Assembly: GCF_988242995.1 (NCBI RefSeq)
Contig: NZ_OZ547043.1
DNA: 64,000 nucleotides
Strand: one strand, 5' to 3'
The number at the start of each line of letters is the position of its first letter. Positions within the stretch are counted from its first letter, which is position 1. Below the pieces are notes generated by a model, which saw nothing but the letters and a program-made list of their open reading frames with translations, was not told the origin of the DNA and did no database searches. Shown here piece by piece: positions 29,917 to 55,950 of the stretch. The translations under genes were made by a program, and so were the position numbers.

Positions 29917-30098
29917 TTCGCACTCCTCAGATATCAGAAACTCCGCTCAAAGGATCTATGCTTCCTGCATGAGTGATCGGCCCGTTCGCCGATAACGATC
30001 TTCTTTCTTTAGCACGCTTTTTAGCAATTAATCTTGATGGAATTCTGACGAGAGCGAAAGAGGTAAGCCAGGTCGTACCCGACTTACCTGGAGGGGAT

Positions 30099-30989: not shown

Positions 30990-33962
30990 TTACCAGTGCA
31001 CTCCAATGGTGAGAAACGCGTTGTTGCGCTCTCCGTTACGTTGATTAATCGCCTTAAAGGTATGTTGATATTCGATGCCGAGACTGACTTTGTGCGGCCA
31101 GGCGTCGTAGTGCGTCTCGCCGGTCCAGATATTCCAGCGGACCCCGACACCGCCAAGCTGCGCGCCCTGAGTGCCTTTATCACGATAACCGTTGTCCTGA
31201 ACGTGAGCGTAAGGCTCAATAGTCTGTCCGTTCGCCACCTTCTGATGCCAGCTTACGCGATAATCTGCCGTCCACGCCTGAATATCCTGGCGGACATATT
31301 GCGCCGCATCGAGGTACAGGTTTTGGGCAAACCAGCCTGAACCGTTCGGGTGCCATTCGTCGCTGTATTTGCCGCCATTAAAGAATGAGGCGCTGGCGCG
31401 CAGCATGGTATCGGATGCGCCATTTTGCCCGTTCAGCGGCAACTGCTGTTCGACTGCGAGGAAAAAGATCTGATCGCGCAGCGGCTTCCAGCGCAGACCG
31501 GTGCCGGACATCGGATTTTTCACCGGCATCATCACCCCGTTTTCTCCGGTATCGGCAAAGACGCGGCTATAAACTGAGAGCAGGTCGCCTTCCAGCAGCA
31601 TATTGCGTCCGATGCGGTACTCGGCTTCCAGTTGCCCGTAGCTACGATAGCTTTTCCCTGGCGCTGCGCCGCCGACATTATTGTTAGCGGTACTCATTGC
31701 GCCGGAACGCAAGCCGATGGAAGAATCGAAACTGAACGTCCAGCGGCGACCGACCTCCTCATGCAGACGGCGGAAATTGAAGCGTTGCTGATTTTGCTCT
31801 GGGGTCAGTGGGGTTATCAGCGCCTGATTATCAATGTCATCAATCACCAGCCGGGCGTAGTGCTGCGTCGCAGGCATGTCATCCAGACGCTGGTTCACGT
31901 AGGCCAGTTGTCGGATAAGTGCCGGATCGTCCGGTAGCCCTTTATGCGCCTGTTCGAGCATTTCCCGCGACTGTGCGATATCACCGCTATCCCACAAGGC
32001 GTAACCGAGCGCTGCCTGGGTGTTGCTATTATTCGGTTCCAGTTCCAGCGCGGCGCGCAAATCACTCACCGCCGCCGGGACATTATGACGTTGGCGATAA
32101 ATTGTCGCCCGCGCAACGTAAGCGTTGGCAGAAGGCGCAATATTGATTGAGCGCGTGAGATCGTTCAGTGCGAGTTCCGGCTGACCAGGAATGTAACGTT
32201 GCGCATGCAGCCACCAGTAGAGGGCATTGTTTCCCAGCCCACGTTGTTCTGCCTGCTGAAGCCAGCGATCGCGAGCCGCACCATTTCCTGCCGCCTGGGC
32301 GGTATTGGCAGCAGCAAGCAGATCCTCATTGCTCATGTCGTGAAGACTGATTTTCTGCCAGGCCGCCAGTGCGGTGGCGTAATCCTCAACCTGATACGCC
32401 TGATAGGCTACCGCACGATGTTGCCAGGCGTTCGGTTGTCGTTGTTCGGCCTGAAGCCATGCATACAACGCCACACCGGGTAGCGTGTCCCGATAACACT
32501 TTGCCAGACGGTTCCAGGCGGCGGCATCGTAGGAAGGCGACATATCGCCCAGCAAGCGAACTATTGCCGGGCAATTATCTGCAATACCCGGCAACTGACT
32601 TTGCCACTGACGTTGCTCCGCCAGCGGTAAGGGTTTCGATAAAATCGCCACCTTCGCCGGCGTTGCCAGGTAAGGATGACTTTCCAGCAGAGACGCCAGT
32701 CGCGCCATTAAAGTCTGGCTGACACGCGCATCGCCCTGGAAAGGATAGCGTTGCAGCAATAAATCGGCAGCTTCGCGTGACTGCTCGTTCTGCATCAGTT
32801 GCCAGGTCAGTTGATCCAGGCGGGTAAGATTTTCCGGTTCTTGCTGATACAGCAATCGTGCCAGACGCAGAGCTTCAGCCTTGTTATGGGTCGCTACGCT
32901 AACGGTATAACGCTCCTCAAGCATTTCATTGGCGGGGAGGGTGGCGAGCAGTTTTTGCGCTGCGTCGTACTGACCTTCTTTTAACAGCACCGGTAGCGTC
33001 GCGCCAACAACATACTGGCGGTTGTCAGCAAACTGTACCGTATAATTCGCCAACGCCTGAACGGGGTTGCCGCTGTATTTAGATAACAGATAGAGCCAAC
33101 TTTTCTCTTGTGCGTCCGTGGTAAATAGCGGCGTATTTTCAATGAGATAACGCTGGAGGCGTGCTTTTTCGTCACGATAAGCCAGCGCGGTCGCGTAAGT
33201 AATATATGACTGCGGATCGGTGAAGATCCCCTGTGATTGCAGCGCCAGGATCCGATCGTCCAGCTGCCCGGCAAGAAGCACATCAAACCACTGGCGGCGT
33301 TCTGCCGCGCTTAATGTGTTCTGCTGGCGTGCTTCATTGTATAGCGTATCTGCCTGGGACCATTGCTTCAGGTAGATTGCCCGTTGCAGCAGATCGGTTC
33401 GCAGCGTTTTTCCTTCCGGCGATGCAGCAAACGTCGCATCGTTCAGTTGCGCTCTGGCGACAGGTAATTGTGCCAGCCGCAGGGCATTCTGCCCAACTTC
33501 ACTGCGACAACGCAGGGTCGGCGCAGCATCGCACGCTTTTTGCTGGGCAAGCAGTTCTTCAACAGTCGTAACGCTTTTCACTTCAACTGGAATAGCCGCC
33601 AGACTGCGCTCAAGTCGGGCATCTCCTGGGTGACGTTTCAGTTGATCCTCAAGCAACAGCCGCGCCCGGTCATCATGACCAAAATGGCGATAGGCTTCCG
33701 CAAGGTATAAAGTTAGCGGAATATTATCCGGCACCTGCTGGTGTATATATTCAAATTCGCGGATGGCGGTTGCTTCGTCGTTATTTTTCTGTGCCTTCAG
33801 CGCCTTGTCGAGACGGGGATAAATAACAAAATGGCGATAATCGCTCAGCCCCAGCTCTTCTGCGCTGGTGCCGATATTGTCTGCGAGTGCGCTGGTACTC
33901 AATAAAGACGTCAGCAGTAAACCAGACCATCCGATGACGCGATTAAGGTTATTCTCCTTCAT
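30990..33962 (-). CDS. nfrA: Bacteriophage N4 adsorption protein A (outer membrane, TPR-rich)
   Basis: Matches E. coli NfrA from MKENNLNRVIGWSGLLL...; ends ...TIGVHW. Confidence 0.9.
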   Translation of the reverse strand: MKENNLNRVIGWSGLLLTSLLSTSALADNIGTSAEELGLSDYRHFVIYPRLDKALKAQKNNDEATAIREFEYIHQQVPDNIPLTLYLAEAYRHFGHDDRARLLLEDQLKRHPGDARLERSLAAIPVEVKSVTTVEELLAQQKACDAAPTLRCRSEVGQNALRLAQLPVARAQLNDATFAASPEGKTLRTDLLQRAIYLKQWSQADTLYNEARQQNTLSAAERRQWFDVLLAGQLDDRILALQSQGIFTDPQSYITYATALAYRDEKARLQRYLIENTPLFTTDAQEKSWLYLLSKYSGNPVQALANYTVQFADNRQYVVGATLPVLLKEGQYDAAQKLLATLPANEMLEERYTVSVATHNKAEALRLARLLYQQEPENLTRLDQLTWQLMQNEQSREAADLLLQRYPFQGDARVSQTLMARLASLLESHPYLATPAKVAILSKPLPLAEQRQWQSQLPGIADNCPAIVRLLGDMSPSYDAAAWNRLAKCYRDTLPGVALYAWLQAEQRQPNAWQHRAVAYQAYQVEDYATALAAWQKISLHDMSNEDLLAAANTAQAAGNGAARDRWLQQAEQRGLGNNALYWWLHAQRYIPGQPELALNDLTRSINIAPSANAYVARATIYRQRHNVPAAVSDLRAALELEPNNSNTQAALGYALWDSGDIAQSREMLEQAHKGLPDDPALIRQLAYVNQRLDDMPATQHYARLVIDDIDNQALITPLTPEQNQQRFNFRRLHEEVGRRWTFSFDSSIGLRSGAMSTANNNVGGAAPGKSYRSYGQLEAEYRIGRNMLLEGDLLSVYSRVFADTGENGVMMPVKNPMSGTGLRWKPLRDQIFFLAVEQQLPLNGQNGASDTMLRASASFFNGGKYSDEWHPNGSGWFAQNLYLDAAQYVRQDIQAWTADYRVSWHQKVANGQTIEPYAHVQDNGYRDKGTQGAQLGGVGVRWNIWTGETHYDAWPHKVSLGIEYQHTFKAINQRNGERNNAFLTIGVHW

Positions 33963-36186
33963 TTTCGGACTCCAGTTGCGCAACCTGTTCTGTGTTTAAA
34001 CCTGCTTTGAGTAATAGTGATTGCATCGAAACTTGTAATTCGCGTTGAATTGTCAGGACGCGATCCAACGTTTCCTGGCTGATAACGCCTTCGGTGACCA
34101 AAAACTTGCCGAGCGGCAGAGAACTACGTTCATGGCGCAATAACAACACGTTAATTGCTGAACGATTAATATGACCGAGTGTGGTCAGTATTTCGGCGAA
34201 CAGGAACTGATGCGGCACATATTGCCGCCAGATTTCACCGGCCTGCTGTTCCGTGAGCCACTGATGCTGAACCGCATTGTACAACATTGCCCGCGGATCG
34301 TGACCGCGTCGGCGCGCATACCAGTGGCGTAACCCCGTGACAATTTGTCCCCGCAGAACAATGACGTAACGCACTTTGCGTCCGACTTTACGCGTCAGGG
34401 CCGCCAGCGAAACCGGGTCAATACCATCTTCACTGCCGACAATTAACTCATCATTTTCCAGACGCAGCGGCAGTACTGCATAATGCAGCGCCACGGAGGC
34501 CGGCATTTCGGCAATCAGTGATGAAGGGATCTGCCAGGCGTCGATCGACTCCCACGCCACGCCGTTTTGCTCTGCCAGCGCCTGTGCCAGCTGTTCGGCG
34601 CTAATCAGCCCCTGCATCAGCATTGAACCGCCCAGGCGTAGACCTTCGACGCGATTACGCAGTGCTGTATCGAGTTGTTCTTCAGTGATGACCTGATTTT
34701 CCAGCAGGATTTGACCTAACGGACGCAACGAGCGGGTATCGCCAGTCACGCTGGGGAAGTCATGCGTTGTTTTATCCCACGCGACACGACGTGGATCGCC
34801 GTGTTGAAGTACCTGTTTTAACGCGCGCCAGTTGGCCATGAAGTTAATCAGGTTGCCCCAGAAAAGACGCAGGACAGATAGCAGCCCCTGCGTCAGGCCG
34901 TAGTAGCCAGTAACGAAAATCACCCGCTGCACGATGCGGTTAATCATCAAGCCAAAGTTTAGCCACAGCAGAGTCATTAACCATGCGCTGCCGCTGAAAA
35001 TAGAAAGGAAATGCCAGGCATCGGGCCACAAACTTTCATACGCCAGCAACAGCAAAAGCTGGATCATCACCAGCATCGCGAGGAAGCTGACAAAGTTACT
35101 GATTGCCCCTTTGCGGTCGCGCCAGAGAAAGTAGTTCAGCGTCAGGCTGGAGGTCCATTTGTGGGTTTTAAAGCCCTGGAAAACAATGCCGATGATCCAG
35201 CGAGATTTTTGTCGAACCGCAGTCGAAAAGGTATCGGGGAAATATTCGCGCACGCAGATCATGTTTGACGTCCGCGCGTGCTGTAAAAATTTACGCTGCT
35301 CGCGTTCTTTGGCTTCGTCCACCACCGGAAAACGGACAAAAATTTCCGTCATACCTTTTTCTTTCAGGCGGAAACCAATGTCGTAATCTTCAGTAAGACT
35401 CTGCACGTCGAAAGCAATACCGTCACCGTCAGCTAACAGTGCGGTCACGGCGCGGCGGCTGAAACAGGTGCCGACGCCTGCGCTGGGCACTTGTCCGGCG
35501 AGGGCTTCACGCACCGGAACATCTTTGCCATGCAGTTCTGAAAACTCATCAATGTAAGTCATGCTGGTGAAGTGCGTCCATTCGCGTTCGAACGGATACA
35601 CCGGGATCTGAATCAGATCTTTACGCTCGACCAGATAGTTGAACAGACGCAATTCCATCGGTGAAATTACGTCTTCGGCGTCATGCAGAATAAAACCAGC
35701 AAAAGCGAAATTGGCGCTACGCTCAAACTGGGTGATGGCGTCCAGCACGTTGTTCAGGCAGTCGGCTTTGCTGGTGGGGCCAGGACGCGCGCAGACTACC
35801 TTATGCACATTCGGGAAGCGAGCGCACACTTCGTCAACATCACGCTGAGTATCGGGGTCGTTGGGGTAGGTGCCAACAAAGATATGATAGTTTTCATAGT
35901 CGAGCGTGGTCGCCGCCAGCTCGGCCATATTGCCGATGACGCCCGTTTCATTCCACGCCGGAACCATAATCGCTAACGGTTTTTCATCTGGTTTATACAG
36001 TTCGCGGTAACTCATTCGCGGGTAGCGGCGATAAACACTCAACTTGCGTTTAATGCGGCGTACCCAGTAGACGACATCAATAAAAAAATCGTCCAGCCCG
36101 CTGATGAACATGATGACCGCTAACGTTATCGCGATTACTTTTAAGCCGTAGAGCCAGGTAGCAAAAACATCAAGAAGCCAGTCCAC
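33949..36186 (-). CDS. nfrB: Bacteriophage N4 adsorption protein B (family 2 glycosyltransferase, inner membrane)
   Basis: 745-aa ORF matching E. coli NfrB. Confidence 0.9.
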   Translation of the reverse strand: MDWLLDVFATWLYGLKVIAITLAVIMFISGLDDFFIDVVYWVRRIKRKLSVYRRYPRMSYRELYKPDEKPLAIMVPAWNETGVIGNMAELAATTLDYENYHIFVGTYPNDPDTQRDVDEVCARFPNVHKVVCARPGPTSKADCLNNVLDAITQFERSANFAFAGFILHDAEDVISPMELRLFNYLVERKDLIQIPVYPFEREWTHFTSMTYIDEFSELHGKDVPVREALAGQVPSAGVGTCFSRRAVTALLADGDGIAFDVQSLTEDYDIGFRLKEKGMTEIFVRFPVVDEAKEREQRKFLQHARTSNMICVREYFPDTFSTAVRQKSRWIIGIVFQGFKTHKWTSSLTLNYFLWRDRKGAISNFVSFLAMLVMIQLLLLLAYESLWPDAWHFLSIFSGSAWLMTLLWLNFGLMINRIVQRVIFVTGYYGLTQGLLSVLRLFWGNLINFMANWRALKQVLQHGDPRRVAWDKTTHDFPSVTGDTRSLRPLGQILLENQVITEEQLDTALRNRVEGLRLGGSMLMQGLISAEQLAQALAEQNGVAWESIDAWQIPSSLIAEMPASVALHYAVLPLRLENDELIVGSEDGIDPVSLAALTRKVGRKVRYVIVLRGQIVTGLRHWYARRRGHDPRAMLYNAVQHQWLTEQQAGEIWRQYVPHQFLFAEILTTLGHINRSAINVLLLRHERSSLPLGKFLVTEGVISQETLDRVLTIQRELQVSMQSLLLKAGLNTEQVAQLESENEGE

Positions 36187-36383
36187 ACAAAAACCTTACA
36201 TTAACGCTGGTTATGTTTAGGGTGGCGTATATTAAGGTTTTTTATGAATTGTGACAGCTTTTTACCATTAATAGGTATGACTATTGCGGCACGTTATTTT
36301 TACACTGGTTATAAAAGTTGCCGTTTGCGTAGAATGTAGACAAAAGCGTGGTGTCAAGGAGGGGAGGTTAACGCAGGGCAAGA

Positions 36384-37520
36384 TTACGAAAGCCCGCTCC
36401 CCGCAAGGACTGACGCGAGATAGTTTCTGCCCATGGCTGCTTTTCGCATCTTACGTCTTAACCCTGCCTTGAATATCTTATCATTCGTTAAAATATTAAT
36501 AGCGATGTGCCGTATCCCTGAATATAATTCTGCGGCGTTTCCTCTTCTTATTTTGCAGTCGTCTTCATTCATTACCACGTCCAGACGCCAGTGCAGCTTA
36601 TTCTCCACGTGCCAGTGGTTTCGGATTGCTGTGGCGAACTTCTCTGCGGTTAAATCAGCAGAACTGATATAATATCTGACCGTCATTTCTGGCTCTTTCT
36701 TTTGTTCTGCTATTATTGACCGAAAGGAGACTGCCACACATAATTTCTTCAGTCCTTTCCATTCAAACGTGAAATCAATAAGTTCATCAGGGACATCGCA
36801 AACAATATGAAGACGGATTTCTTCTCTGCCGTGACTCTTTTCACTAATGGCGTAACTGTCATGCTCTGGATTATTTAATTCTTTCAGTGGAAATTTTTCC
36901 TCAAAGGCTTTATTAAGCCGCCCCTGGTTTCCTTTTACAGCGAATAAATAATCACCGCCCTGTTTTTGTATCTTCTCTGCAATATCTTTCTGGCAACCCA
37001 TCGCATCAGTTGTGATGATTTTTCCTTTAATATACAGCATGTTAAGAAGTTCTGGGATAGCTGTAATCTCATTAGATTTCTCATCCGTTCTGATCTGTCC
37101 GATGACCAGACTGTGCATTGTTGAGAACGCACTAATGACATGAATCGCTCCCCTGCGGCGACTCTTGTCATAAGAATGCCGGAGTGTTTTTCCATCGATT
37201 GCAATAACGTCTTTATCATCTGAAGTATGGCAATCTCGCATCCAGTTAATAAAGCACTCGTGAAATTTTGAAGGACTGATACAGGATACAACTCTGGCGA
37301 TGGTATCGTGAACAGGAATACCATTTTCAAAATCACCATATTGTTTTAAAAAATCGAGATGTGTTTCCCCAAAATCCTCTATATCTTCCCAACCTTCTGC
37401 ACCAGAAATAACGGCACAAATAGTCAACAGTAGAATATCCGATAATTTATGTTCCACTTTCCAGGCTTGTCTGTAATCGGGGATAATAGAAATATGCTCC
37501 ATCAATTTTTTAAGTTCCAT
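36384..37520 (-). CDS. ISAs1-family transposase (H-repeat-associated protein), apparently full length
   Basis: 378-aa ORF matching E. coli H-rpt proteins (YhhI/YbfD type) associated with Rhs loci. Confidence 0.8.
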
Positions 37521-37786
37521 TTTGTTCTCCTTAATTATGTAAGGAGTATTTGATCATGTATAAGCAATAAAAACAGCTTTAGGTAATGAGGAATATCTCA
37601 ATTTTTAAACATAAAATGCGAATTATTTAGTACAAAAAAGCAGCGTTACGTGATCTTTCCCTGGTGTACTTCTGATGATCTTTCCCTGGGTTAAACAGGT
37701 GGTGAAGGGAATGAAGAATGGGATATCCGGCGTATTACGCGAGGTATAAAAATAAAAGCCGGGAGATTGTCACTCCCGGCAACATA

Positions 37787-38068
37787 TTATTTTTTTATTT
37801 CATTATATCTGATAAAAAAAGTATTTAGTGCATCATGTTCATCTTGTGAGAACAATAAAATAATTTTATCCCATGAATGTCCTGTTACTCCATAATAGTC
37901 TTCAATATAAGATTGAAGCCTTATTAATATCTCAATATTGACGATTTCTTTTGGCTCTCTCATTTGCCATCCATCCAGGAAAGCTTTTAACGCCGATATG
38001 GTATGCCTGCTTAAATATAAAGCTGGTCTTTTTTCTATCATATCAATCAGTTTAACAATATCATTCAT
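37787..38068 (-). CDS. Putative Rhs immunity protein (93 aa)
   Basis: Small AT-rich ORF starting 2 nt after the rhs stop on the same strand; position typical for cognate immunity. Confidence 0.55.
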   Translation of the reverse strand: MNDIVKLIDMIEKRPALYLSRHTISALKAFLDGWQMREPKEIVNIEILIRLQSYIEDYYGVTGHSWDKIILLFSQDEHDALNTFFIRYNEIKK

Positions 38069-38070
38069 AA

Positions 38071-41000
38071 TTAAAACCTTGATGGAGTAATGGTGTATTC
38101 GCCAGGAGAGTATATATCATTCAGCCAATCTTCATACTTTATACCAGAAGGATTCATATTATCAAAAACTGTATCACCTACTTTTATTGCTTCATGATGA
38201 CCATTAGTTGCTATATTTTTACCTATTCTATCACTCCATATATTGCCAAAGGCGCCTTGTTTATTTTTAGTTTCGAGTATGAGATGCTCACCATTTACCC
38301 CAGCTTGTTGCATTTTACTTTTTAACGCTGCGGCAAATTTATCGCATTGAAAAAGCTGTTTAAACTTATCACTTATTGTTGTTGCAAGATCCCTTGTTTT
38401 TGCGATATCGCAAATGGTTAATCCTAATGGATCAATATAACCAAGGGGATTATGAACATATGCATAATTGTTTATCCCGCCTCTCAGCCCTATCGGATCA
38501 CTCACCAGGTACATCCCGGTTTCCGGCTCGTAATACCGGAACCGGTTATAGCACAGCCCGGATTCCGCATCCTGCCACTGTCCTGCATACAGCAGGCCGG
38601 GGTCGGCTTCCGGGTCCAGCTCCCCACGCGGGTCCGGGTAGCCGGTGTCTGCGGGCAGGCTGAGTGCCAGCCCCCACAGGCTGGTCTGTCCCGGTCGCCA
38701 GACGGTTTTACCTTCACTGTTAAAGAGCATCAGCGGCCGGCCCGTCAGGTCGCTCACCGCATGATTCGTCCGCGTCACCCACTGCGGGGCCACGGACGGA
38801 TGCGCCTGCCGTACCCGGCTGCACTGCTGGCTTATCAGCTCAAAGCCGTTAAACACCAGGTGCCGCACACTGTACAGTTTATCATCGCGGTATTCCCGGA
38901 TTTCCGCAATACTGTCGCCATCCCACAGGTACGTAAAACGGATTTTCTTCCGGTCGCAGCGTTTCTCTGTTCGTCTGCCGCTGGCATCGTGGCGGTATTC
39001 CCACTGTTCACCCTGTGCGCTGCAATACCCGGTCAGCTGGTCCCGGCTGTCCCACCGGAACCGCTCTGTTTCCGGGCGGTAACCGTCACGGTGTCTGGTG
39101 CGGCTGACCATCCGGCCTGCGGCGTCATAGTCATACTGCGTGTTTCCGGCCTGTTTCAGCCGGTGGCCTCCGGCATACTGGTCAGTCTCTTCACTTATCC
39201 GGTGCCTGCCCGCAGACTGCGCCTTCAGGTAGCCGCAGCTGTCATAGCCATAAGTCTCATCGCCTTCGCCATAGCCCAGCCCGGTGCCTGAGGCTGTCAC
39301 CGCCGTGACCTGGCCGTTCCGGTCCAGCCGGTACTCCCGCCGTGTTTCCCGTCCGTAGTCTTCCCGGCTGGTGACAGCCGACACATTACCCGCGCTGTCG
39401 TAACGGTACTCCCGCACCAGTGAGGGGAGCAGCCCGCCCCATGTGGCTTCCGCCGGGAAAAATCCGGCGCGCTGGCTGACAGCCTGACCGGCTGCATTCC
39501 AGCCCTGCTCACAGGCAAAACCCCGGTTACTGTGCCGGAGCACTTCACGTCCTGCCTCATCACGGCTGAACGTCAGCGTCTCATCCCCCGGCAGGATAAC
39601 CTCCGTCAGTTCTCCGGCGGCGTTGTAGCGGTAGGTGGTTTTCAGCAGGGATTCACCGGGGTGTCTGTCGCGTTCATCTTCCGGTGGCAGGATACAGCGG
39701 ATGACGGTGTGTTCATCGGGGTGGTGGTATTCAATGGCCCGTCGGCCCTGAGTGGTGACATTCACCCGGCCGCGTTCGTCATAGCCGGTGCGCTGTGATG
39801 TGCCGTCCGGGCTGAAGATACCCGTCAGCCTGCCGGATTTGTCATACGCATACTGCGTTTTGCCTTCCGGCGTGATGACTTCTGCCAGGCGGCCTGCGGC
39901 GTCCCGGCTGTAGAGGATAGTTTCCTCCAGGCCGTTGACCCTGGCGGTACACAGGCCATCGGCGTCATAGCGGTAACGCCAGACCACGCCGCCCCAGTCA
40001 CGCTCTTCCGTCACCCGGCCGCAGTTATCCAGAACATAAAGATATGACTCACCCTGCGGATTGATGACTTCTGTCAGTTGCAGCGTGTCTTTATCGTAGC
40101 GGTACTGCCAGCGGTGGCCTTCACCGTCCGTTCGCGCCACCGGCAAATCAAACGGGCCGTACTCCATTGTCCAGACAACGCCATTGCCGTCCGTCCAGGC
40201 CAGCAGGTTGCCGTGGCGGTCGTTGCGGAATCCTTCCGCGCCGGTTCCAGTGCGCTCAAGGCCGCTCAGTTTATGGTGCTGCTGCCACTGCAACCGCACT
40301 GACTGACCGCCGGGGCCGCGCATCTTCACCGGCAGGTCGTGACCACTGTATTTGGTGTGGTGTTCGCGGCCCATCACGTCGGTGAGTGTTTCCGGCCGGT
40401 TGTGGCGGTCGTACTCTATGCCCAGACGCCGTTCATCCTGGCGGAATATCCCCGACAGCAGCCCCTGAGCGGTGTATGCCAGCCGGGTCTCTTCGCCCTG
40501 TGGCGACACCTGACTTACCGGCAGGCCGCGTTCATCACACTGCTGTGTCCACGTCTGCCCGGCAGGGTCGGTGATGTTGCTGAGCAGGCCGCGCTCATCA
40601 TAGCGGTACAGCCACTCCGCGCCGTCTGCCGCCGTGTAACGGCTTAACTGACCGAGTGCGGCGTTGTCTTCAAATTTCTCCACCCGCCCGGCAGGGGAGT
40701 GGCGGGCCAGCAGGTGATGGAATTCATCCCATTCATACGTGGTGGTACTGCCGTCCGGCGCGTCTTCCCGCAGGATATTGCCGTCAGGATCATAGTAATA
40801 ACGGTGAATGCCCTTGCCGTCCGTCACGGTGGTGCAGCCGTCCCCATAGTCCAGCGTGGCGTTGTAATAGCCCTCCGCCCCGGTGACGGTCACGCACCGG
40901 CCCTGTGTATCGTAGGTGAAACGGCTCCACGTCTGGTCGTTATCGGACCAGCGGATGATCCGGTCCGCATCGTCGTACTCATAAAACAGGTGGTAGTCCA

Positions 41001-42735
41001 GCCGCGCATCCGCTTCTGTCAGCCGCCCCCGCGCATCCTGTTCGTAGGTCGCCAGCGTCTGTATGCCGTTATCCGTGCGGTGAATGGCTTTCAGGTAGCC
41101 GCTGGCGTGGTACGTCAGTTTAAGCCGGATCCCGTCAGTGTGACTGACACCTGTGATCCGGTACTGGCTGTCGCGCTCAAACGTGATGCGGTTGCTGGCG
41201 GTGTCGCTCATCCCGCCCAGCATGTACATCCGGTCTGCGGGGCTGTGTGCCAGACGGTCATCGCTGGTATCGTCAGTCACCGGGTGGCGCAGACGCATTC
41301 CCGGAAAGGCGTCATAAAAGAAGCGGCTGCTCAGTGCATCCCTGTCGAACAGCTCCAGGTAATCATCGCGGCGGCGCAGAATGTACTGGGCGTGATACGG
41401 GTTAACCGCCGTATCACTGTCACCGTCGAAGGCAAATCTCAGCGTGGTTCCCTGGCTGATGATATCCACCCGGTTTCCCTGTTCACGCACCCAGGCGTAT
41501 TCGCTCCAGGAGTCGCTCCAGCCCACGCCCGTCAGGCCATGCAGTGGCAGTACAGAACTGTGGAAACGGGTGAAGGAGAGGGGGAGTGTCTGGCCCAGCG
41601 TAAAGTCGGTACGTTCGTCGCAGTATGCGCCGGTTACCGGATCGACAGGATCTGTTACCCATCTGATGACTTTATTGGCAATACTTTTTAACGACTTACC
41701 TGTTTTCCCCAGCAACGCGCCGAGCTTTGCCCCCAGCAGCTTCCCGCTTTTCCCCAGCAGGTTTCCCAGTTTGCCGAGTCTCGCCAGATTCTTCAGTTTT
41801 CCCAGCAGTCCCGCTGGCGGCAGAAGATAGCTGGCTATCGTTATTCCCCCCAGGATCATTCTCTGCCACGGCGGGAACTCCGGCTGGATATCCAGATAGG
41901 TGACCTGCTCACCCCCAATAAAGACGTCCGGCGAACCTTCCACGATTGCCGCACTGCACTCCAGTTTGTCCCCCTTGCGTGCAGCAGGCTGATTGTTGAT
42001 AAAGACGTTGCTGCTGCCCTGGGCTATCCTCGGCGGTTTGTTCTCCTTGTCGCAGAGCGCCGTGTCCTCACCGGCTTCCGGGAAATCCACGTCTTTTTTG
42101 ATTTCGCCACGCCCGCCCACCATGGTGGCAAACTCCATTAATACCGGACCGGCGGGAAACAGAAGCGATGCGCCGGCGCTGACGCGATCCATAATACCGG
42201 CATTGCTGTCCGTCAGGGTGATAACAGCGTTCCCCCAGGCCTTCGCCAGTGGTACTGCTTTTTCCGCTGCCGATTCAAGCAGGTCAGTGGCAATATCCCC
42301 CCATGAAGGTTCCCCCTGTGGTAGAGAGGGTATTGCTTCAGTCAGGGGAGGAGGGGGAAGGGTGACGGCGGCCCTGGCAGCGGGCTTTCCGTTAATTTTT
42401 ACATTTTTAGAACCAGTATTGATGGCCCCGTCCTTGTCACAAAAGCTGTTTATCCATGACTCAAGCTGGTTCTGTTTCTCCTCCACATAATCACTCGCCT
42501 TATAGCTGGCATACATCAGCGCAGGCACCAGAACCAGCGCATAAGGGCCGGTGGCGCAGGCGGCCATAATCAGGCAACCTTCTGCGATAGTTACTATCGC
42601 CCCCAGCACGGCCCCTGCCAGTGCCCCCAGAAAACTTTTATGCTGAATTTCATCGTCCAGTCTGGCGGCAGGTGGGCCGGACTTCTTTGCTGCCAGCATC
42701 TCTGCAATGGCTTTGTCGTTGGCTGCCCGTTTCAT
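38071..42735 (-). CDS. rhs: prePAAR/PAAR-Rhs type VI secretion effector with unassigned C-terminal toxin domain
   Basis: 1554-aa ORF; N-terminal prePAAR motif AARLDDEIQH, hydrophobic TM region, YD/Rhs repeats, terminal DPIGL...PLGYIDPLGL motif, then an AT-rich 116-aa C-terminal extension. Confidence 0.85.
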   Translation of the reverse strand: MKRAANDKAIAEMLAAKKSGPPAARLDDEIQHKSFLGALAGAVLGAIVTIAEGCLIMAACATGPYALVLVPALMYASYKASDYVEEKQNQLESWINSFCDKDGAINTGSKNVKINGKPAARAAVTLPPPPLTEAIPSLPQGEPSWGDIATDLLESAAEKAVPLAKAWGNAVITLTDSNAGIMDRVSAGASLLFPAGPVLMEFATMVGGRGEIKKDVDFPEAGEDTALCDKENKPPRIAQGSSNVFINNQPAARKGDKLECSAAIVEGSPDVFIGGEQVTYLDIQPEFPPWQRMILGGITIASYLLPPAGLLGKLKNLARLGKLGNLLGKSGKLLGAKLGALLGKTGKSLKSIANKVIRWVTDPVDPVTGAYCDERTDFTLGQTLPLSFTRFHSSVLPLHGLTGVGWSDSWSEYAWVREQGNRVDIISQGTTLRFAFDGDSDTAVNPYHAQYILRRRDDYLELFDRDALSSRFFYDAFPGMRLRHPVTDDTSDDRLAHSPADRMYMLGGMSDTASNRITFERDSQYRITGVSHTDGIRLKLTYHASGYLKAIHRTDNGIQTLATYEQDARGRLTEADARLDYHLFYEYDDADRIIRWSDNDQTWSRFTYDTQGRCVTVTGAEGYYNATLDYGDGCTTVTDGKGIHRYYYDPDGNILREDAPDGSTTTYEWDEFHHLLARHSPAGRVEKFEDNAALGQLSRYTAADGAEWLYRYDERGLLSNITDPAGQTWTQQCDERGLPVSQVSPQGEETRLAYTAQGLLSGIFRQDERRLGIEYDRHNRPETLTDVMGREHHTKYSGHDLPVKMRGPGGQSVRLQWQQHHKLSGLERTGTGAEGFRNDRHGNLLAWTDGNGVVWTMEYGPFDLPVARTDGEGHRWQYRYDKDTLQLTEVINPQGESYLYVLDNCGRVTEERDWGGVVWRYRYDADGLCTARVNGLEETILYSRDAAGRLAEVITPEGKTQYAYDKSGRLTGIFSPDGTSQRTGYDERGRVNVTTQGRRAIEYHHPDEHTVIRCILPPEDERDRHPGESLLKTTYRYNAAGELTEVILPGDETLTFSRDEAGREVLRHSNRGFACEQGWNAAGQAVSQRAGFFPAEATWGGLLPSLVREYRYDSAGNVSAVTSREDYGRETRREYRLDRNGQVTAVTASGTGLGYGEGDETYGYDSCGYLKAQSAGRHRISEETDQYAGGHRLKQAGNTQYDYDAAGRMVSRTRHRDGYRPETERFRWDSRDQLTGYCSAQGEQWEYRHDASGRRTEKRCDRKKIRFTYLWDGDSIAEIREYRDDKLYSVRHLVFNGFELISQQCSRVRQAHPSVAPQWVTRTNHAVSDLTGRPLMLFNSEGKTVWRPGQTSLWGLALSLPADTGYPDPRGELDPEADPGLLYAGQWQDAESGLCYNRFRYYEPETGMYLVSDPIGLRGGINNYAYVHNPLGYIDPLGLTICDIAKTRDLATTISDKFKQLFQCDKFAAALKSKMQQAGVNGEHLILETKNKQGAFGNIWSDRIGKNIATNGHHEAIKVGDTVFDNMNPSGIKYEDWLNDIYSPGEYTITPSRF

Positions 42736-42802
42736 CTAGCTGGCGACCATCGCCCGCTGCGACTGCATTCGCATTGCCAGCGTACCGCCTGCGGTCGCTC
42801 CC

Positions 42803-42878
42803 TGTGGCCCGCTCTGTCCTTCGCTCATTGGTTTTATCCCTGTGGCCCGCTCTGTCCTTCGCTCATTGGTTTTATCCC
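42803..42878. repeat. Perfect 38-bp tandem duplication in the eagR-rhs intergenic leader
   Basis: tgtggcccgctctgtccttcgctcattggttttatccc occurs twice back to back. Confidence 0.85.
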
Positions 42879-42886
42879 TGTGTCTG

Positions 42887-43348
42887 TCAGCGCGGCTGGT
42901 CCTGTTTGATATTCTTCTCCGGCGGTAATGGTGTGAAGCTCTTTATCACATCGAGCAGCATCGTCTTTTGACTGTTCTTAAGGGGTAAAGACGTACTGAA
43001 CGTGAAGGTCAGCAGCGTATCACCACGCCGCTGAAATACGGCTATCTGGCTAATCCGCCCCTGATTCCCTTCATCTTCCGGACCGTTCCAGGAATAATCC
43101 AGCAGCCAGGCCGGGGCCTCTGCCAGAGTGATTTCCCGGCAGGCATGTTCGGTGTAACCGTCCAGCTTGCCCTGGTACAGCGCCAGCGTTTCCTTGTACA
43201 GTTCTGGTGTCAGGGTTCCCTGTGGAACGGGTTCGCGGGTAATGACCAGGTTGATGCCACTGTTATCTGTGGACACCAGGACCTGCATTGACTGATCCTG
43301 CCATTGCGATGGCAGCTGAATATGACCTTCATTAAAAGTGAACTGCAT
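42887..43348 (-). CDS. DUF1795-family (Eag-type) effector chaperone
   Basis: 153-aa ORF between vgrG and the prePAAR-Rhs; size and position typical of Eag chaperones. Confidence 0.6.
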   Translation of the reverse strand: MQFTFNEGHIQLPSQWQDQSMQVLVSTDNSGINLVITREPVPQGTLTPELYKETLALYQGKLDGYTEHACREITLAEAPAWLLDYSWNGPEDEGNQGRISQIAVFQRRGDTLLTFTFSTSLPLKNSQKTMLLDVIKSFTPLPPEKNIKQDQPR

Positions 43349-43375
43349 AAAATACTCCCTGATAATTTGAATGAA

Positions 43376-45277
43376 TCAGTTAATGAAAACAGAACCGCCC
43401 ACGATGGTGATGCCATCCTTCGACAGCCTGATTACCGTCGATTCCCCGACCTGTAGCTGAATGCCATCCGGCGTCAGCGCAATTTTGCTTTCCTCCACGG
43501 CCAGCATAATTTGCTTAATTGCCGTATAAGCCTGTATACCGTCGCCTTCGCCACCATTGTTTACAGCGTCAACATGCACTGAACCGGCAATCGTGCCTCT
43601 GTCCTGAAAAACATCCTCAGATAAAGACCCTTTTAGTACGCCTGTGATTTTGTGGCCTTTTTCCACCGTAAGAAGGCGGTTACCTTCCTGGATCGTGACC
43701 GTCTGGTCATTTTTTACGGTTTCGCGGTGATCGTGTTTTACGGTGGTGGTACGGTCGTTGAGTACCTCGGTATCCATGTTCTTCTGGGCGTGGATGTAGA
43801 CCTGTTCTTTCCCTGTCGCATCGTCAAACTTCAGCTCGTTAAACCCGCTGCCCATATATGTTTTGGAGCGGATGGTCATCTGCGTCTTCGTTCCCGGCAG
43901 GCTGCCCGGCGAGCGGTTATCTTCGTGGTAGGTGCGCCCCATAATGATCGGCTGGTCCGGATCGCCGTTGAGGAAGTCCACAATGACCTCCTGACCCACA
44001 CGCGGTATCGCCAGATTGCCGAACCCGGCTCCTGCCCACGCCTGTGCCACACGGATCCAGCACGAACTGTCCTGGTCTGCCGGGTTATAGCGGTCCCAGT
44101 TGAATTTCACCCGCACCCGGCCATGCTCGTCGCAGAAGATTTCCTCTCCCGCAGGCCCCGTCACGACGGCGCTCTGTGGACCGTCCACTGACGGCTTTGG
44201 CTTCGGCTGTGGCCGCCACGTCCGGTCTGCCGGGATTACCACAAACTGGTTCTCCAGCGCCGTCCCCGCGCCCCGCCGTCCCGGCACCGCCTGCGGCTGT
44301 TCGCCGTGCAGTTCGCTCGCCACCACCTGCCATTCCCGGTTCAGGTTCGCCTGCGGATGCTCCGTCAGCACAATTCGCCGTCCCGGCCATATCTCCGGCG
44401 AGCGGCTCATTCCCCGCGCGGTTTCTGCGTTGTTTCGCCAGCCGTCCATCTGCCAGCGGGCAAAGTTCTGCCCGTGGGCGCTCTTGAAACGCCCGGGGTA
44501 GTCATACACTTCATACTGCGTGCGCTGGTAGTCCTGGTGCTGGCCTTCCTGTTCAAAACGTCCGGCCCAGCCGGGGCGTTTAAAGGTGTAGTCTTTGGTC
44601 ACCACGGAAGAAGGGCGGATTTGTGCGCTGTAGCGGAACTGGCTGATGCAGAGGGTGCTCACCTCGGTACGGGTGTTCGGGTTCCATGGGATTTCAAAAG
44701 ATTCGGGCAGATGGCGGACTGTGTCGCACAGCACCAGGCTCTGGTCGGTACTTTTGTAAGCATGCTCCTCATAAAAGAAGATGCCTTCCTCCGCCGCCAT
44801 CCGGCACAGGAAATCGTAATCAGTCTCACCGTACTGGACACAAAACTCACGGGAAGGATGCGGCTCGCTGAACAGCGGACTCCATTCGGTCACCCCGTTT
44901 TCCTGCAACATCGTGCCGAGGATGCTTCTGATGTCCTCGTTCTGGAAGATACGGAAGTTCTGACGCAGTCCTGCCCGCCACAGCGGCGGGCGCACCTTCA
45001 TGCTGTACAGCATCTGGTTTTTGTCGTTCTCCCCGAGTTCAAACCAGGTCACCACGCCTTTCACCCGGCGCTGTACGTCATCGCCCTGCCATACCGTCAG
45101 GTAGGCCATTTTGTCCAGCACCTGCGCAAATTCAAGGTAGAGAAACTGCTGACTGACCAGAGAAAGGTCAAGGGAAAAAAGTGAAGAGAGTGACTGGGTG
45201 AGATGAAAGGAGACCACCGCAAAAGCGTCCGGTGGCAGGCCGTCCACTTCCAGTGTGAAACGTAATCCGGTTGACAT
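43376..45277 (-). CDS. vgrG: Type VI secretion spike protein VgrG
   Basis: MSTGLRFTLEVDGLPPDAFAVVSFHLTQSLSSLFSLDLSLVS... gp27/gp5-like; the ORF could start 12 codons upstream at 45313. Confidence 0.85.
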   Translation of the reverse strand: MSTGLRFTLEVDGLPPDAFAVVSFHLTQSLSSLFSLDLSLVSQQFLYLEFAQVLDKMAYLTVWQGDDVQRRVKGVVTWFELGENDKNQMLYSMKVRPPLWRAGLRQNFRIFQNEDIRSILGTMLQENGVTEWSPLFSEPHPSREFCVQYGETDYDFLCRMAAEEGIFFYEEHAYKSTDQSLVLCDTVRHLPESFEIPWNPNTRTEVSTLCISQFRYSAQIRPSSVVTKDYTFKRPGWAGRFEQEGQHQDYQRTQYEVYDYPGRFKSAHGQNFARWQMDGWRNNAETARGMSRSPEIWPGRRIVLTEHPQANLNREWQVVASELHGEQPQAVPGRRGAGTALENQFVVIPADRTWRPQPKPKPSVDGPQSAVVTGPAGEEIFCDEHGRVRVKFNWDRYNPADQDSSCWIRVAQAWAGAGFGNLAIPRVGQEVIVDFLNGDPDQPIIMGRTYHEDNRSPGSLPGTKTQMTIRSKTYMGSGFNELKFDDATGKEQVYIHAQKNMDTEVLNDRTTTVKHDHRETVKNDQTVTIQEGNRLLTVEKGHKITGVLKGSLSEDVFQDRGTIAGSVHVDAVNNGGEGDGIQAYTAIKQIMLAVEESKIALTPDGIQLQVGESTVIRLSKDGITIVGGSVFIN

Positions 45278-46020
45278 AGCAACCTCCGTGAAAATGAATA
45301 ATAATCCGCACATATTGCATGTACAACATGTCGGGTAATGAGATAAGCGGGCCGGCTTCAGGTGTTACCGGGGAATATCAGAAAAGTGTCATGGTTATGT
45401 GAGAATTTTGTCCGGGATTTTACTTCAGAGAAACGGGGGTCTGTTGAGTCAACAAAATAATCACAAACTCAACTGACGGGTTCACGATGTTATTAAGGAC
45501 AGGCTCGTATATTACATCGAGTAACAAAAAAACACCTGATATGCAAAGTTAAACCAATATTCATAATGTCTTTTTATTCACAGTAATAAATAATTCAATA
45601 AACATCATTGAAATGAATGATGGTTTGTATAAGGAATATACGCTACCGCCCCACCCTGATAACATGATCTGCACATTGCCATCTTAACGTCGTTAGACGC
45701 TGGCTTAATAGTGAATATTTTAAATTAGGAATTTATCAAATCCACTTGATAAATAGATTGTGTGAATAATATAGAGATTAATGATGCCTGACTGCGCTTT
45801 ATATTATAGCCGATTCTTTTATAGTGATGAAAATTTAGTAATAGCATTGTGCTCTACAATTGGTAGAAACACGAATTTGATTAAATTGCATATCTAAATA
45901 TCTCGTAAATATCCGAAAATGAATAACCTTCGATTTCAGACGACCAATAAGGTCTTCCCTGTTTTATTGATAAATAATAACAGAAGGCGATACATCACTC
46001 TTTGAGTTTGAACTAACTAA

Positions 46021-47469
46021 TTAACCTTTCTCCGGTAGTTTGATCATAAACCTTGTTCCCCGCGCATCTGACGTTACCGCAACCGTGCCTTTATGCGCGA
46101 CAACAATTGATTTCACTATCGCCAGGCCAATGCCGCTACCTTCGCCTTTTCGCTGGCGGGAAGGATCAACGCGGTAGAAACGGTCAAACAATCGCGGTAA
46201 GTGTTCGGGCGCAATGGGCGTACCGGGGTTTTCGACGGAAACTTGCACCTGGTGATCGACCGTCTGGCAGCGCACAACAATTGCCTCTCCGGGTGGCGTA
46301 TAACGCAGGGCGTTCGAAAGCAGGTTGCTTAACGCCCGACGCAGCATCAGCGGATCGCCCGCAACCTGACACTCGTCACCAACAAACCGCAACTCCACGC
46401 CGCGATCTTCCGCTAACGCCTCGAAAAAATCGAACACTTTGCCGACTTCATCCGCCAGGTTGAGCATTTTCTTTTCGGGGATTAACTGGTTGTTATCGGC
46501 CTGGGCGAGAAACAACATATCGCTGACCATTTTCGCCATTCGCGTCAGCTCTTCGAGATTAGAGTAGAGCACATCTTCCAGCTCCTTCTGGCTGCGTGAC
46601 TGGCTGAGGGCGATTTCGGTTTGCGTTATGAGATTCGTAATTGGTGTACGAATTTCGTGAGCGATATCCGCTGAGAAATTGGACTGGCGAGTAAAGACAT
46701 CCTCAATACGCTCGATCATATGGTTGAACGACAGTACCAGCTGTTCCAGCTCAATCGGCACGGTCTGCGGGTCAAGGCGAACGTCGAGATCTTTCGAGGT
46801 GATATTCTGGATTTGACGGCTGACGCTGCGGATCGGCGCGTGACCTTTATGTACCGCCAATAGCACGATAAAGACGATCAGGATGCTGATGATCGATGCG
46901 GTCATAATAAGTTTATTCATCAAATCATTTATGTAATGAAGATGAAAATCGATCGAAAGCGCGATGTAGAGCGTATAAATCGGTTTGCCGTCCACCAACG
47001 GGCCAACCGGCAAGTTAATCATCCGCCAGTTGCTGTGTTCCATATGCCCGTGACCGTGGCCCGGCATCATCATTGTCGGGCCGGAAAGGAGATACACCTC
47101 GCCGCCCCGCGCGTCTTTATCGGGTATGGCATCACGTGCAAACTCGCGGATATCGGGCGCACCGGGGGAGTGATATACCGTTTTACCGTGGCTATCTGCC
47201 AGGGAGATCAACACATTGGAATAACCACTGACAATATCTTCCAGCGTCATTAAGCGTCGGGCTTGCGTTTCGTCAGGGTGATTAAGTACCCGTTCAAGTG
47301 TGGCGCTAATTTCTTTTAAATCATTAATATCCTGCTCGGCAAAATGCACTTTTACCGAGTGGATCATTATCCATGCAAAGGCGAAAAACGCCGCGATGGT
47401 GGCGAGGCTGATAAAAAAGGTCAGGCGGGTTGCCAGCGAAAACGGGCGCTGAAATGGCTTACTGACCAT
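46021..47469 (-). CDS. cusS: Copper/silver sensor histidine kinase CusS
   Basis: Matches E. coli CusS from [16 protein letters not shown]... Confidence 0.9.
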
Positions 47470-48142
47470 CCGGCACCTCAAGCATGTAACCCACGCCGCG
47501 CACGGTTTGAATCAGCTTCGGCTCAAAGTCGTTGTCGATTTTGCCACGCAGCCGCTTCACCGCCACATCAATGGCGTTAGTGTCGCTGTCGAAATTCATG
47601 TCCCACACCTGCGAGGCGATAAGCGAGCGGGGCAGCACTTCGCCCTGATGGCGAAGGAAAAACTCCAGCAGAGTAAACTCTTTACTGGTCAGAGTGATGC
47701 GCGTACCGCTGCGGGTGACTTTGCGGCTGACGAGATCGACCATCAAATCGGCAACCTGAAACTGACTTTCGATAATCACCGCCGCCCCGCGCCGCAGTAA
47801 TGTGCGCACCCGCGCCAGCAGTTCAGCAAAAGCGAATGGCTTCACCAGGTAGTCATCTGCCCCCAACTCCAGCCCCTTGACGCGATGTTCAATGGTGCCA
47901 AGCGCGGTAAGCAACAGAATCGGCATCCCTTTATTGGCGGAACGCAACATACGCACGATATCCCAGCCGTTCACGTCTGGCAGCATAATATCGAGGATTA
48001 TCAGGTCATAATCACCGGTCATCGCCAGATGGTAGCCATTCAGCCCGTTGTCGGCCAAATCGACCACAAAACCGGCTTCGGTTAACCCTTTGGTCAAGTA
48101 TTCTCCGGTTTTCTTTTCATCTTCGACAATCAACAGTTTCAT
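47459..48142 (-). CDS. cusR: Response regulator CusR
   Basis: 227-aa ORF matching CusR (OmpR family). Confidence 0.9.
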
Positions 48143-48207
48143 ATTTCCTCCGCATGTTGCCCGGGCAATTCTAGAGTAGCGGGATCAGATGGCAATCGCT
48201 TATTGGC

Positions 48208-48229
48208 AAAATGACAATTTTGTCATTTT
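48208..48229. promoter_or_regulatory. CusR box palindrome AAAATGACAATTTTGTCATTTT in cusR-cusC divergent promoter region
   Basis: Perfect palindrome read directly; matches the known CusR binding site. Confidence 0.75.
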
Positions 48230-48298
48230 CCTGTCACCGGAAAATCAGAGCCTGGCGGGTAAAGTTGGCGACATAAAATCACCAGAAATTATGTGCCT

Positions 48299-49681: not shown

Positions 49682-49704
49682 TTTTTAACTCCAGGAGAGA
49701 ATAA

Positions 49705-50037: not shown

Positions 50038-50052
50038 CCCAGGTTTAATGAG

Positions 50053-51276: not shown

Positions 51277-51287
51277 GGGAATAACCA

Positions 51288-55909: not shown

Positions 55910-55950
55910 GGCATTCACGCCGTATCCGACAAAATGATGTCAACCATCCG

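Follow-up and report, generated by a model that had tools for sequence, protein, structure and literature searches.

The window, i.e., the whole stretch of 64,000 nucleotides that was analyzed, carries five genes between the core genes nfrB and cusS, all on the minus strand: vgrG, a DcrB/DUF1795 family gene, a prePAAR-containing rhs gene, a small putative immunity gene, and an intact ISAs1-family transposase gene (Table 1). The preliminary description had listed the same genes in this interval; all were present at the positions given, and profile matches confirmed every domain assignment. From about 46 to 62 kb the window is colinear with the locus of strain GF60 from cusS to fepA, and positions 1 to about 27 kb hold a lambdoid prophage together with appY/ompT at the DLP12 site.

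Table 1. Features of the nfrB–cusS interval and its flanks, with positions in the window.
Feature	Position	Strand	Description
nfrB	33949..36186	-	left flanking core gene; NF008411 equivalog, 1332.8 bits
Native nfrB upstream region	36187..36328	.	matches the GF60 empty site exactly up to 36328
Island proper, ~9.7 kb	36329..46033	-	absent from the GF60 empty site and K-12
ISAs1-family (H-repeat, ISEc1-like) transposase	36384..37520	-	intact ORF, 378 aa; NF033564, E 1.7e-123
symE toxin gene remnant	37690..37746	+	final 19 codons; convergent to the immunity gene
Terminator-like hairpin and T-run	37758..37780	-	directly 3′ of the immunity gene; pattern scan
Putative immunity gene	37787..38068	-	93 aa; starts 2 nt past the rhs stop
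Toxin tip, Tox-PL-2 (PF15643) papain-fold domain	38074..38418	-	E 3.9e-22
rhs ORF	38071..42735	-	1554 aa; prePAAR_I, PAAR, DUF6531, YD repeats, Rhs-associated core, and Tox-PL-2 matches
30-codon leader ORF	42736..42828	-	ends in amber TAG (42738-42736)
Perfect 38-bp tandem duplication	42799..42882	.	2.2 copies; Tandem Repeats Finder, 100% matches
DcrB/DUF1795 family gene (EagR-type chaperone, putative)	42887..43348	-	153 aa; PF08786, E 7.9e-28
vgrG	43376..45277	-	633 aa, full length (start probable); TIGR03361, E 6.6e-188
AT-rich region 5′ of vgrG	45278..46020	.	presumed promoter/leader; 34% GC
cusS	46021..47469	-	right flanking core gene, island-linked 482-aa allele; NF007345, 985 bits

In K-12 MG1655, nfrB and cusS are adjacent and separated by 149 bp, as the preliminary description had stated, and the island is absent. 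Alignment to the empty site of strain GF60 placed the junctions between 36328 and 36329 and between about 46033 and 46034. The additional DNA described for the interval 36187-46020 (about 9.8 kb) is real, but the island proper is slightly shorter. Likewise, the low GC content noted at both ends holds, with 34.5% in 36187-36328 and 34% in 45314-46020, but the former segment is the native upstream region of nfrB and lies outside the island. Within the island the GC content is mosaic, ranging from 29% in the immunity gene and 35% in the toxin tip to 60% in the rhs core. Comparison with the GF60 empty site revealed no target-site duplication at the junctions. On the nfrB side (29062-36328) the window is 99.97% identical to GF60, whereas the cusS side shows 97.8% identity and the last codons of cusS belong to a different allele (482 aa vs. 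480 aa) with a C-terminus unlike that of the empty-site allele. Annotations of island-bearing genomes show the 482-aa form.

The VgrG match, at 625.4 bits, exceeded the cut-off of 186 and covered positions 1-512 of the 513 in the model. As an open reading frame, vgrG extends over 43376-45313; the true start is probably 45277, which gives the 633 aa seen in relatives. The protein is 97% identical to, and equal in length with, VgrG1 (ECs0607) of O157:H7 Sakai; with the VgrG encoded in the T6SS core cluster of Sakai it shares 90% identity across 538 aa. The AT-rich region upstream contains no gene, only short ORFs, and no Rfam match, and part of it recurs 5′ of other vgrG/rhs loci. Downstream of vgrG, the PF08786 match covers all 127 model positions, and the gene is located directly 5′ of a prePAAR effector with an N-terminal hydrophobic region; its product is, by domain and position, a putative Eag chaperone.

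The rhs product has the full domain series of such an effector, including the prePAAR motif AARLDDEIQH at residues 23-32 (Pfam prePAAR_I, E 1e-5), a hydrophobic region at about 33-75, the PAAR domain (PF05488, E 2.5e-10), the YD-repeat shell (TIGR01643, E 2.8e-66) and the Rhs-associated core (TIGR03696, E 4e-21). DPIGL occurs at residues 1413-1417 and DPLGL at 1435-1439, and up to the DPLGL motif the protein is 95% identical to Sakai RhsF (ECs0605).

As for the possibility, raised in the preliminary description, that vgrG or rhs might be pseudogenes, vgrG proved to be full length, whereas in rhs the 31st codon, counted from the start annotated in five relatives, is amber. The segment 42736-42828 forms the first 31 rhs codons in relatives, which have CAG where the window has TAG; an in-frame ATG follows immediately and opens 1,554 intact codons. 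A gene caller annotated the 30-aa leader ORF in the same-lineage contig L017. TAG was found in all 10 related contigs fetched, and the change from CAG is limited to the lineage of the window among 2,181 complete genomes with the same rhs 5′ end. Moreover, the exact 1554-aa Rhs occurs in many samples, on at least 17 contigs that all have the same island, which shows that neither the arrangement nor the TAG stems from an assembly error. These contigs are near-clonal and thus offer no evidence of purifying selection. The perfect 38-bp duplication covers the upstream rhs ATG together with a Shine-Dalgarno-like site, and the repeat unit is present in single copy in the five relatives and in L017. 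Only the upstream ATG, which all gene callers use in the relatives, is preceded by a good Shine-Dalgarno-like site; none was found before the ATG directly after TAG. Given the amber codon, Rhs would have to start at this second ATG, by which all recognized motifs would be kept. Bacterial ribosomes commonly reinitiate at an ATG that directly adjoins a stop codon. With the amber codon lying before this ATG and the only good Shine-Dalgarno-like site belonging to the upstream one, the synthesis of Rhs may be lowered or even abolished. In EHEC, the full-length promoter of the same island was reported to be silent under laboratory conditions (PMC7618764). The 31-codon extension is the most diverged portion of rhs.

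The C-terminal tip of Rhs matches Tox-PL-2, and it holds the signature residues Cys1464, Asn1511/His1514 (NxxH), and Asp1525-Asn1526 as listed for the family (PMC3482391). These C, NxxH, and DN residues are invariant or near-invariant in 49 homologs, and the domain is always C-terminal in its varied carriers. A PDB search yielded no solved structure related by sequence. The structural model of the tip, which was rated confident, adopts a papain-like alpha+beta fold closest to protein-glutaminase, N-terminal glutamine amidase, LapG, and SseI, with sequence identities to solved structures of 12-16%. The C39-type toxin Cpe1 belongs to a different branch of the papain fold. To our knowledge, no member of Tox-PL-2 has been characterized biochemically, and we know of no Rhs or T6SS antibacterial effector with demonstrated protein-glutamine deamidase or transglutaminase chemistry.

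The putative immunity protein has no hydrophobic segment and no match in Pfam (even at E <=10), NCBIfam or PADLOC. In the Pfam search it was not assigned to Imm73, the family reported with Tox-PL-2. It is 100% identical to the ORF following an orphan Tox-PL-2 toxin in strain JNE23-011, and the exact protein was found on 493 contigs, far more than the exact Rhs. The terminator-like hairpin behind the gene has an 8-pair stem with 7 GC pairs, followed by TTTTATTTTT (consensus match only). Beyond it, the symE remnant is identical at 18 of 19 residues to SymE of strain d1-58 (tblastn), and a partial SymE is annotated at the same place in relatives. The transposase scored 411.8 bits against a cut-off of 70 and, at 378 aa, equals intact annotated homologs in length; the Sakai copy of the element is annotated as "partial". 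No convincing pair of terminal inverted repeats was found within 36250-37800.

Comparison of the nfrB–cusS interval across 5,426 complete E. coli genomes, as suggested in the preliminary description, revealed vgrG adjoining cusS in 2,362 (~44%) and an empty site of the K-12 type in 2,326 (~43%). The island is a presence/absence polymorphism that divides complete E. coli genomes about 50/50, and orphan and broken rhs pieces are usual at the locus. The novelty implied by the preliminary description was not borne out, as the same position is occupied in the O157:H7 Sakai reference genome and the island is already named in the literature: a vgrG1/eagR/rhsF island was reported in EDL933 (PMC7216683) and is known as S-loop 44 in Sakai (PMC7618764). 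S-loop 44 (ECs0602-0607; EDL933 z0702-z0707; vgrG1-eagR-rhsF-rhsG) lies between ECs0601 (nfrB) and ECs0608 (cusS) and thus shares its site with the window. It also shares the order and orientation of ISAs1/H-repeat, toxin/immunity, Rhs, DUF1795, and VgrG. The two differ in their tips and immunity genes. The Sakai RhsF tip was predicted to be nuclease-like (PMC7618764), whereas the window has Tox-PL-2 and the 93-aa ORF, both unrelated in sequence to RhsF/RhsFI beyond the DPLGL motif. The window further lacks the orphan rhs fragment of Sakai, while the amber at annotated codon 31 and the 38-bp duplication are features of the window. The island is therefore real but ordinary, already known, and part of a standard variable locus of E. 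coli.

No T6SS core genes occur in the window, as had been noted before. We sought the core cluster in the close relative NRZ14408, whose nfrA-nfrB is 100% identical to that of the window, and found a full tssA-M/hcp/vgrG cluster at aspV. The lineage of the window's strain recurs in human gut metagenomes.

Taken together, we consider it probable that the locus is an accessory "orphan" T6SS effector island that belongs to the known vgrG1-eagR-rhsF type and occupies the site usual for it. The EagR-type chaperone would shield the N-terminal prePAAR/transmembrane region of Rhs, the PAAR domain would cap the cognate VgrG, and a T6SS encoded elsewhere, such as the aspV cluster of relatives, would fire the VgrG-Rhs spike. 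Inside the target cell the Rhs shell would free the Tox-PL-2 domain, a predicted Cys-His-Asp thiol enzyme from the papain-fold branch that includes transglutaminases and protein-glutaminases. Its target would probably be a cytoplasmic protein, on which it would have deamidase, transglutaminase, or peptidase activity. The producer would be protected by the product of the neighboring gene, a 93-aa protein predicted to be cytoplasmic, and the ISAs1 "H-repeat" would be the passenger that Rhs elements usually carry at their distal end. A similar organization is found in the orphan vgrGO1-eagR-PAAR-Rhs-CT modules of E. coli, for which vgrG and eagR were reported to be needed for delivery (Ma et al., 2017b, as summarized in PMC6730261). 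There, an orphan vgrG and eagR/DUF1795 lie 5′ of a PAAR-Rhs whose C-terminal toxin varies, as in the window, whereas the tips tested are the nucleases Rhs-CT3 and Rhs-CT5 in place of Tox-PL-2. With the Tox-PL-2 family (PF15643; Zhang et al., 2012) the window tip shares the Pfam match, the C, NxxH, and DN residues and the C-terminal place, but its neighbor differs from the reported partner Imm73.

The amber codon, and possibly the 38-bp duplication, might block the full-length effector and leave a silent or decaying reservoir that keeps immunity against kin firing this toxin and recombination stock for other rhs loci. The lineage-unique change from CAG, the ATG after the stop without a Shine-Dalgarno-like site, the prevalence of orphan and broken rhs pieces at the locus, and the excess of the exact immunity protein over the exact Rhs all fit this reading. 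We nevertheless regard it as unlikely, since the 1,554 codons are uninterrupted with every motif intact, vgrG and the chaperone gene are intact, the stop and ATG are adjacent in an arrangement where reinitiation is common, and the native start is itself only putative, the extension being the most diverged part of rhs. A role independent of T6SS, in which a promoter inside the 3′ portion of rhs would express only the tip and the immunity gene as a toxin-antitoxin-like or regulatory pair in the producer, seems highly improbable. Such a pair, RhsFint-RhsFI, was reported at the same locus in Sakai EHEC (PMC7618764), and promoter-like hexamers do occur in the AT-rich toxin/immunity segment; but such sites are no commoner there than in shuffled sequence, and the toxin and immunity gene of the window are unrelated to RhsF/RhsFI past DPLGL.

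A separate question is the direction of change at the site. The island might be ancestral, its absence from K-12-type genomes being due to a deletion or to recombination with an empty allele, a reading that we place on the unlikely side. The near-equal frequency of occupied and empty sites, the junctions without target-site duplication, and a fragment of the same rhs from E. marmotae in the protein collection are consistent with such a loss, and the diverged cusS side (97.8% vs. 99.97%) fits a swap of whole alleles through homologous recombination in the flanks. Against it stand the mosaic GC content, from 29% to 60%, the insertion sequence, and toxin cassettes that elsewhere travel with integrase-bearing units, which point to a foreign origin at some stage.

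The Tox-PL-2 cassette itself is rare, being present in only 7 of the 5,426 complete E. coli genomes, and none of the loci inspected has it joined to an intact full-length rhs. In the lineage of the window it forms, in frame, the tip of a full-length rhs, whereas the complete genomes inspected carry it as a downstream orphan or as a standalone cassette; in JNE23-011 and DETEC-S792 the toxin/immunity cassette is the most distal orphan at the nfrB–cusS locus, after a piece of rhs core. In Salmonella Typhimurium, activation of an orphan Rhs toxin by recombination was reported (Koskiniemi et al., 2014; PMC3967940), and a comparable main-by-orphan recombination deleting the intervening modules would yield the in-frame fusion of the window. 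The shared rhs core is a mosaic of "main" and "orphan" variants without a single breakpoint, and the opposite history, in which an older tip was displaced by incoming ones, fits equally well. The bolder proposal that the tip is a deamidase/transglutaminase antibacterial toxin lately promoted from a silent distal orphan to an expressed tip, with expression set by stop-ATG reinitiation and the copy-variable 38-bp repeat, appears decidedly doubtful.

The main value of these results is negative: the locus is a standard variable one, occupied in about four of ten complete genomes, and as an island calls for no special follow-up. At the allele level it is of modest interest, as Tox-PL-2 is a family without a characterized member and here forms the tip of a full-length Rhs. 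The confident structural model points to a glutamine-directed chemistry of this tip, which, together with an immunity protein from no known family, makes a convenient start for defining the action of Tox-PL-2 toxins.

All five genes that a preliminary description had listed between nfrB and cusS, as an orphan type VI secretion system (T6SS) effector island, were found in that interval on the minus strand. The Rhs protein carries a prePAAR motif (AARLDDEIQH, residues 23-32, with an additional Pfam prePAAR_I match), a strongly hydrophobic segment (residues 33-75), a PAAR domain, DUF6531 and YD repeats, and its Rhs-associated core terminates in DPIGL...DPLGL (1413-1439). The remaining 115 residues, the toxin tip, matched Tox-PL-2 (PF15643, E 3.9e-22). 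The GC content was 60% in the rhs core, 35% in the toxin tip, 29% in the immunity gene and 34% in the region upstream of vgrG, and the island is a classic Rhs mosaic in composition. The 93-aa protein, which has no hydrophobic segment, matched no Pfam or NCBIfam family, Imm73 included, and its ORF was named a putative immunity gene because of where it lies, because it starts 2 nt past the rhs stop and because it is constantly associated with the toxin.

Features of the nfrB-cusS interval (window coordinates)
Feature	Position	Strand	Match
nfrB, flanking gene	33949-36186		
ISAs1-family transposase, 378 aa	36384-37520	-	NF033564, E 1.7e-123
93-aa ORF, putative immunity	37787-38068	-	
Rhs, 1554 aa	38071-42735	-	
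DcrB/DUF1795 protein	42887-43348	-	PF08786, E 7.9e-28
VgrG	43376-45277	-	TIGR03361, 625 bits
cusS, flanking gene	46021-47469/47481		

Terminal inverted repeats were sought for the ISAs1 element and none was convincing. Promoter and terminator counts did not exceed those of shuffled sequence, the sole noteworthy item being a hairpin after the immunity gene, and an Rfam scan of 36000-46200 returned no family even at E 0.1. Adjoining the immunity gene, at 37690-37746 (+), a symE-type toxin gene is represented by its last 19 codons, a leftover of a cassette form that E. coli d1-58 has intact; near this remnant, relatives carry about 120 bp absent from the window, because one direct-repeat copy is missing here. 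Gut-metagenome contigs (L013, L015 and L016), otherwise identical to the window, differed from it only by tight clusters of 17-20 substitutions within the ISAs1 transposase and vgrG (window regions compared, 36813-37347 and 44657-44762), and three such contigs had the transposase split in two. Paralogous copies converted these genes, or the metagenome assemblies are chimeric.

Comparison with reference strains showed that the corresponding interval of E. coli O157:H7 Sakai (ECs0602-0607) holds an H-repeat/ISEc1 and an orphan rhs piece, followed by an immunity gene and rhsF and then by a DUF1795 gene and vgrG. The Sakai island is known as S-loop 44, and a recent study dealt with its immunity protein RhsFI (PMC7618764); the EDL933 equivalent, z0702-z0707, has been described as the 'vgrG1 island' with eagR and rhsF/rhsG (PMC7216683). 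The VgrG of the window shares 97% identity with ECs0607, and the window's Rhs shares 95% identity with RhsF as far as the DPLGL motif. One review (PMC6730261, citing Ma et al. 2017b) reports that delivery of such Rhs toxins in E. coli needs an orphan vgrG (vgrGO1) together with eagR, both located upstream of rhs-ct. In a set of 5,426 complete E. coli genomes, vgrG was joined to cusS as in the window in 2,362, the nfrB-cusS junction was empty in 2,326, and many of the occupied sites were extended into arrays that hold several orphan toxin/immunity modules. The preliminary identification of the genes stood; these counts mark a common accessory locus and not an unusual insertion.

To delimit the island, the window was aligned with strain GF60, in which nfrB and cusS are adjacent, as they are in K-12 MG1655. 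The alignment was unbroken to 36328 on the left and restarted at 46034 on the right, so the island extends from 36329 to about 46033; the proposed left edge had to be shifted, since the 142 bp adjoining nfrB are native sequence. No target-site duplication was found at the junctions in this comparison. CusS ends in …FMIKLPEKG (482 aa) here and in island-bearing genomes (window 46021-46045), whereas the allele of GF60 and of empty-site genomes ends in …FVITLPA (480 aa), and thus the right junction coincides with a diverged core-gene end. Identity to GF60 was 99.97% on the nfrB side (29062-36328) and 97.8% on the cusS side (46034-60663), and this pattern suggests that recombination in the flanks exchanged whole alleles, the island moving together with the cus side. 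As the best match of the island was just 96.7%, an origin outside E. coli was also considered, and was rejected because nfrA-nfrB is 100% identical to that of four complete E. coli genomes.

T6SS core genes are absent from the window, as had been stated. Its first 27 kb or so comprise a lambdoid prophage (with tail tip J, tape measure, capsid, primase and DUF262 genes) followed by appY and ompT, the K-12 counterpart of this site being that of the cryptic prophage DLP12; just 12 of the 5,426 complete genomes covered at least 80% of the first 25 kb. The stretch from 46 to 62 kb is colinear with the cusS-to-fepA stretch of GF60. NRZ14408, a complete genome that matches the window with 100% identity in nfrA-nfrB, harbors a full tssA-M/hcp/vgrG/rhs cluster at aspV, where the T6SS of Sakai is also located, and the source strain itself presumably owns a cluster of this type. 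The VgrG of the window shares 90% identity with the VgrG inside the Sakai cluster across the first 538 residues, a similarity consistent with the island using the same T6SS machine.

Analysis of the 5′ end of rhs revealed a lesion. Five relatives examined read ...GCC AGC CAG ATG AAA..., whereas the window reads ...GCC AGC TAG ATG AAA..., and the annotated start in these relatives is an ATG 31 codons upstream with a good Shine-Dalgarno-like site; counted from the annotated start, codon 31 of the window's rhs is therefore amber. This codon (42736-42738) is directly followed by the ATG opening the 1554-codon frame, and within a perfect 38-bp tandem duplication (42799-42882) both the upstream ATG and its ribosome-binding site are repeated. 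Of 2,181 complete genomes that have this 5′ end of rhs, none was more than 99% identical to the window across it. At least 17 contigs, drawn from one NCBI assembly, from several gut metagenomes and from a large number of sequencing runs, encode the exact 1554-aa protein. All ten contigs retrieved had the TAG, the 38-bp unit being single-copy in one; contig CATUEA010000015.1 (GCA_958328545.1) was identical to the window over 15.7 kb. With such recurrence in many independent assemblies of the lineage, the amber codon and the duplication are not errors. Every recognised Rhs motif lies downstream of the ATG adjoining the TAG, and continued production of Rhs would depend on reinitiation there, a plausible event. 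A search of distant homologues for the true start returned Escherichia fragments only, all called from the upstream ATG. Purifying selection on rhs was sought among related contigs, where the IS, vgrG and cusS differ in patches that resemble gene conversion; these contigs are near-clonal and therefore uninformative on this point.

Zhang et al. (2012; PMC3482391) defined Tox-PL-2 as a toxin of papain fold whose conserved residues are C, NxxH and DN and whose partner is Imm73. The signature residues in the window Rhs are Cys1464, Asn1511/His1514 and Asp1525-Asn1526. A full HMMER scan gave 424 representatives on carriers of very different lengths, with the domain nearly always at the extreme C-terminus; an alignment of 49 of these representatives showed an invariant Cys, an invariant Asp-Asn and a nearly invariant His. 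Structure prediction from the single sequence failed (pLDDT 39), whereas AlphaFold2 with the 49-homologue alignment afforded a confident model (pLDDT 97.3). In agreement with this analysis, PF15643 has been classed among the transglutaminase-like papain-fold families (PMC10318531). We infer that the toxin tip is a thiol enzyme acting on a protein substrate, perhaps at the side chains of glutamine residues. The prePAAR/transmembrane arrangement of the carrier and the lack of a hydrophobic segment in the immunity protein make a cytoplasmic target probable. To our knowledge, no member of Tox-PL-2 has been characterised. A PDB sequence search with the toxin revealed no similarity to solved structures beyond the Rhs core end; kinship with Cpe1, an E. 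coli T6SS cysteine protease of the C39/ComA type, was rejected on this basis and on that of type. PADLOC had no family for the toxin, the immunity protein or the chaperone.

The cassette formed by the Tox-PL-2 tip and the putative immunity gene was found in just 7 of the 5,426 complete genomes, three of which (JNE23-011, DETEC-S792 and d1-58) were examined. JNE23-011 and DETEC-S792 have it at the nfrB-cusS locus as the most distal orphan, behind a broken rhs core piece, and their full-length rhs bears another toxin; in d1-58 it sits at the RhsC locus. In the window it forms, in frame, the tip of the full-length rhs, without intervening modules. This arrangement fits recombination between the main gene and an orphan, an event reportedly selected experimentally in Salmonella (PMC3967940), and it equally fits an older state that newer tips later displaced elsewhere. 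The informative sites in the shared core were searched for one breakpoint that would separate main from orphan rhs sequence; they proved mosaic, so they do not decide between the two histories.

Downstream of rhs at RhsC/ybgA, d1-58 (NZ_CP187961 1430965-1455776, locus positions ~5000-19500) carries two to three tandem units of ~6.57 kb each. In each unit, 84 nt that copy the rhs core end (DPIGL...DPLGL) are accompanied by a toxin tip, an immunity gene, symE and an HTH gene, as well as by genes for a ~910-aa primase containing a CHC2 zinc finger and for a XerC-like recombinase. One of the units holds the same Tox-PL-2/immunity cassette as the window. A literature search on such integrase-bearing rhs cassette units found nothing. 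These units suggest that toxin cassettes move on integrase-bearing elements inserting at the conserved rhs end. Taken as a whole, the observation of an island is confirmed and its interpretation, with corrected borders, is supported. The island is already known, its mechanism would follow from homology to studied members, and the new details are limited to the toxin allele and the rhs 5′ lesion.
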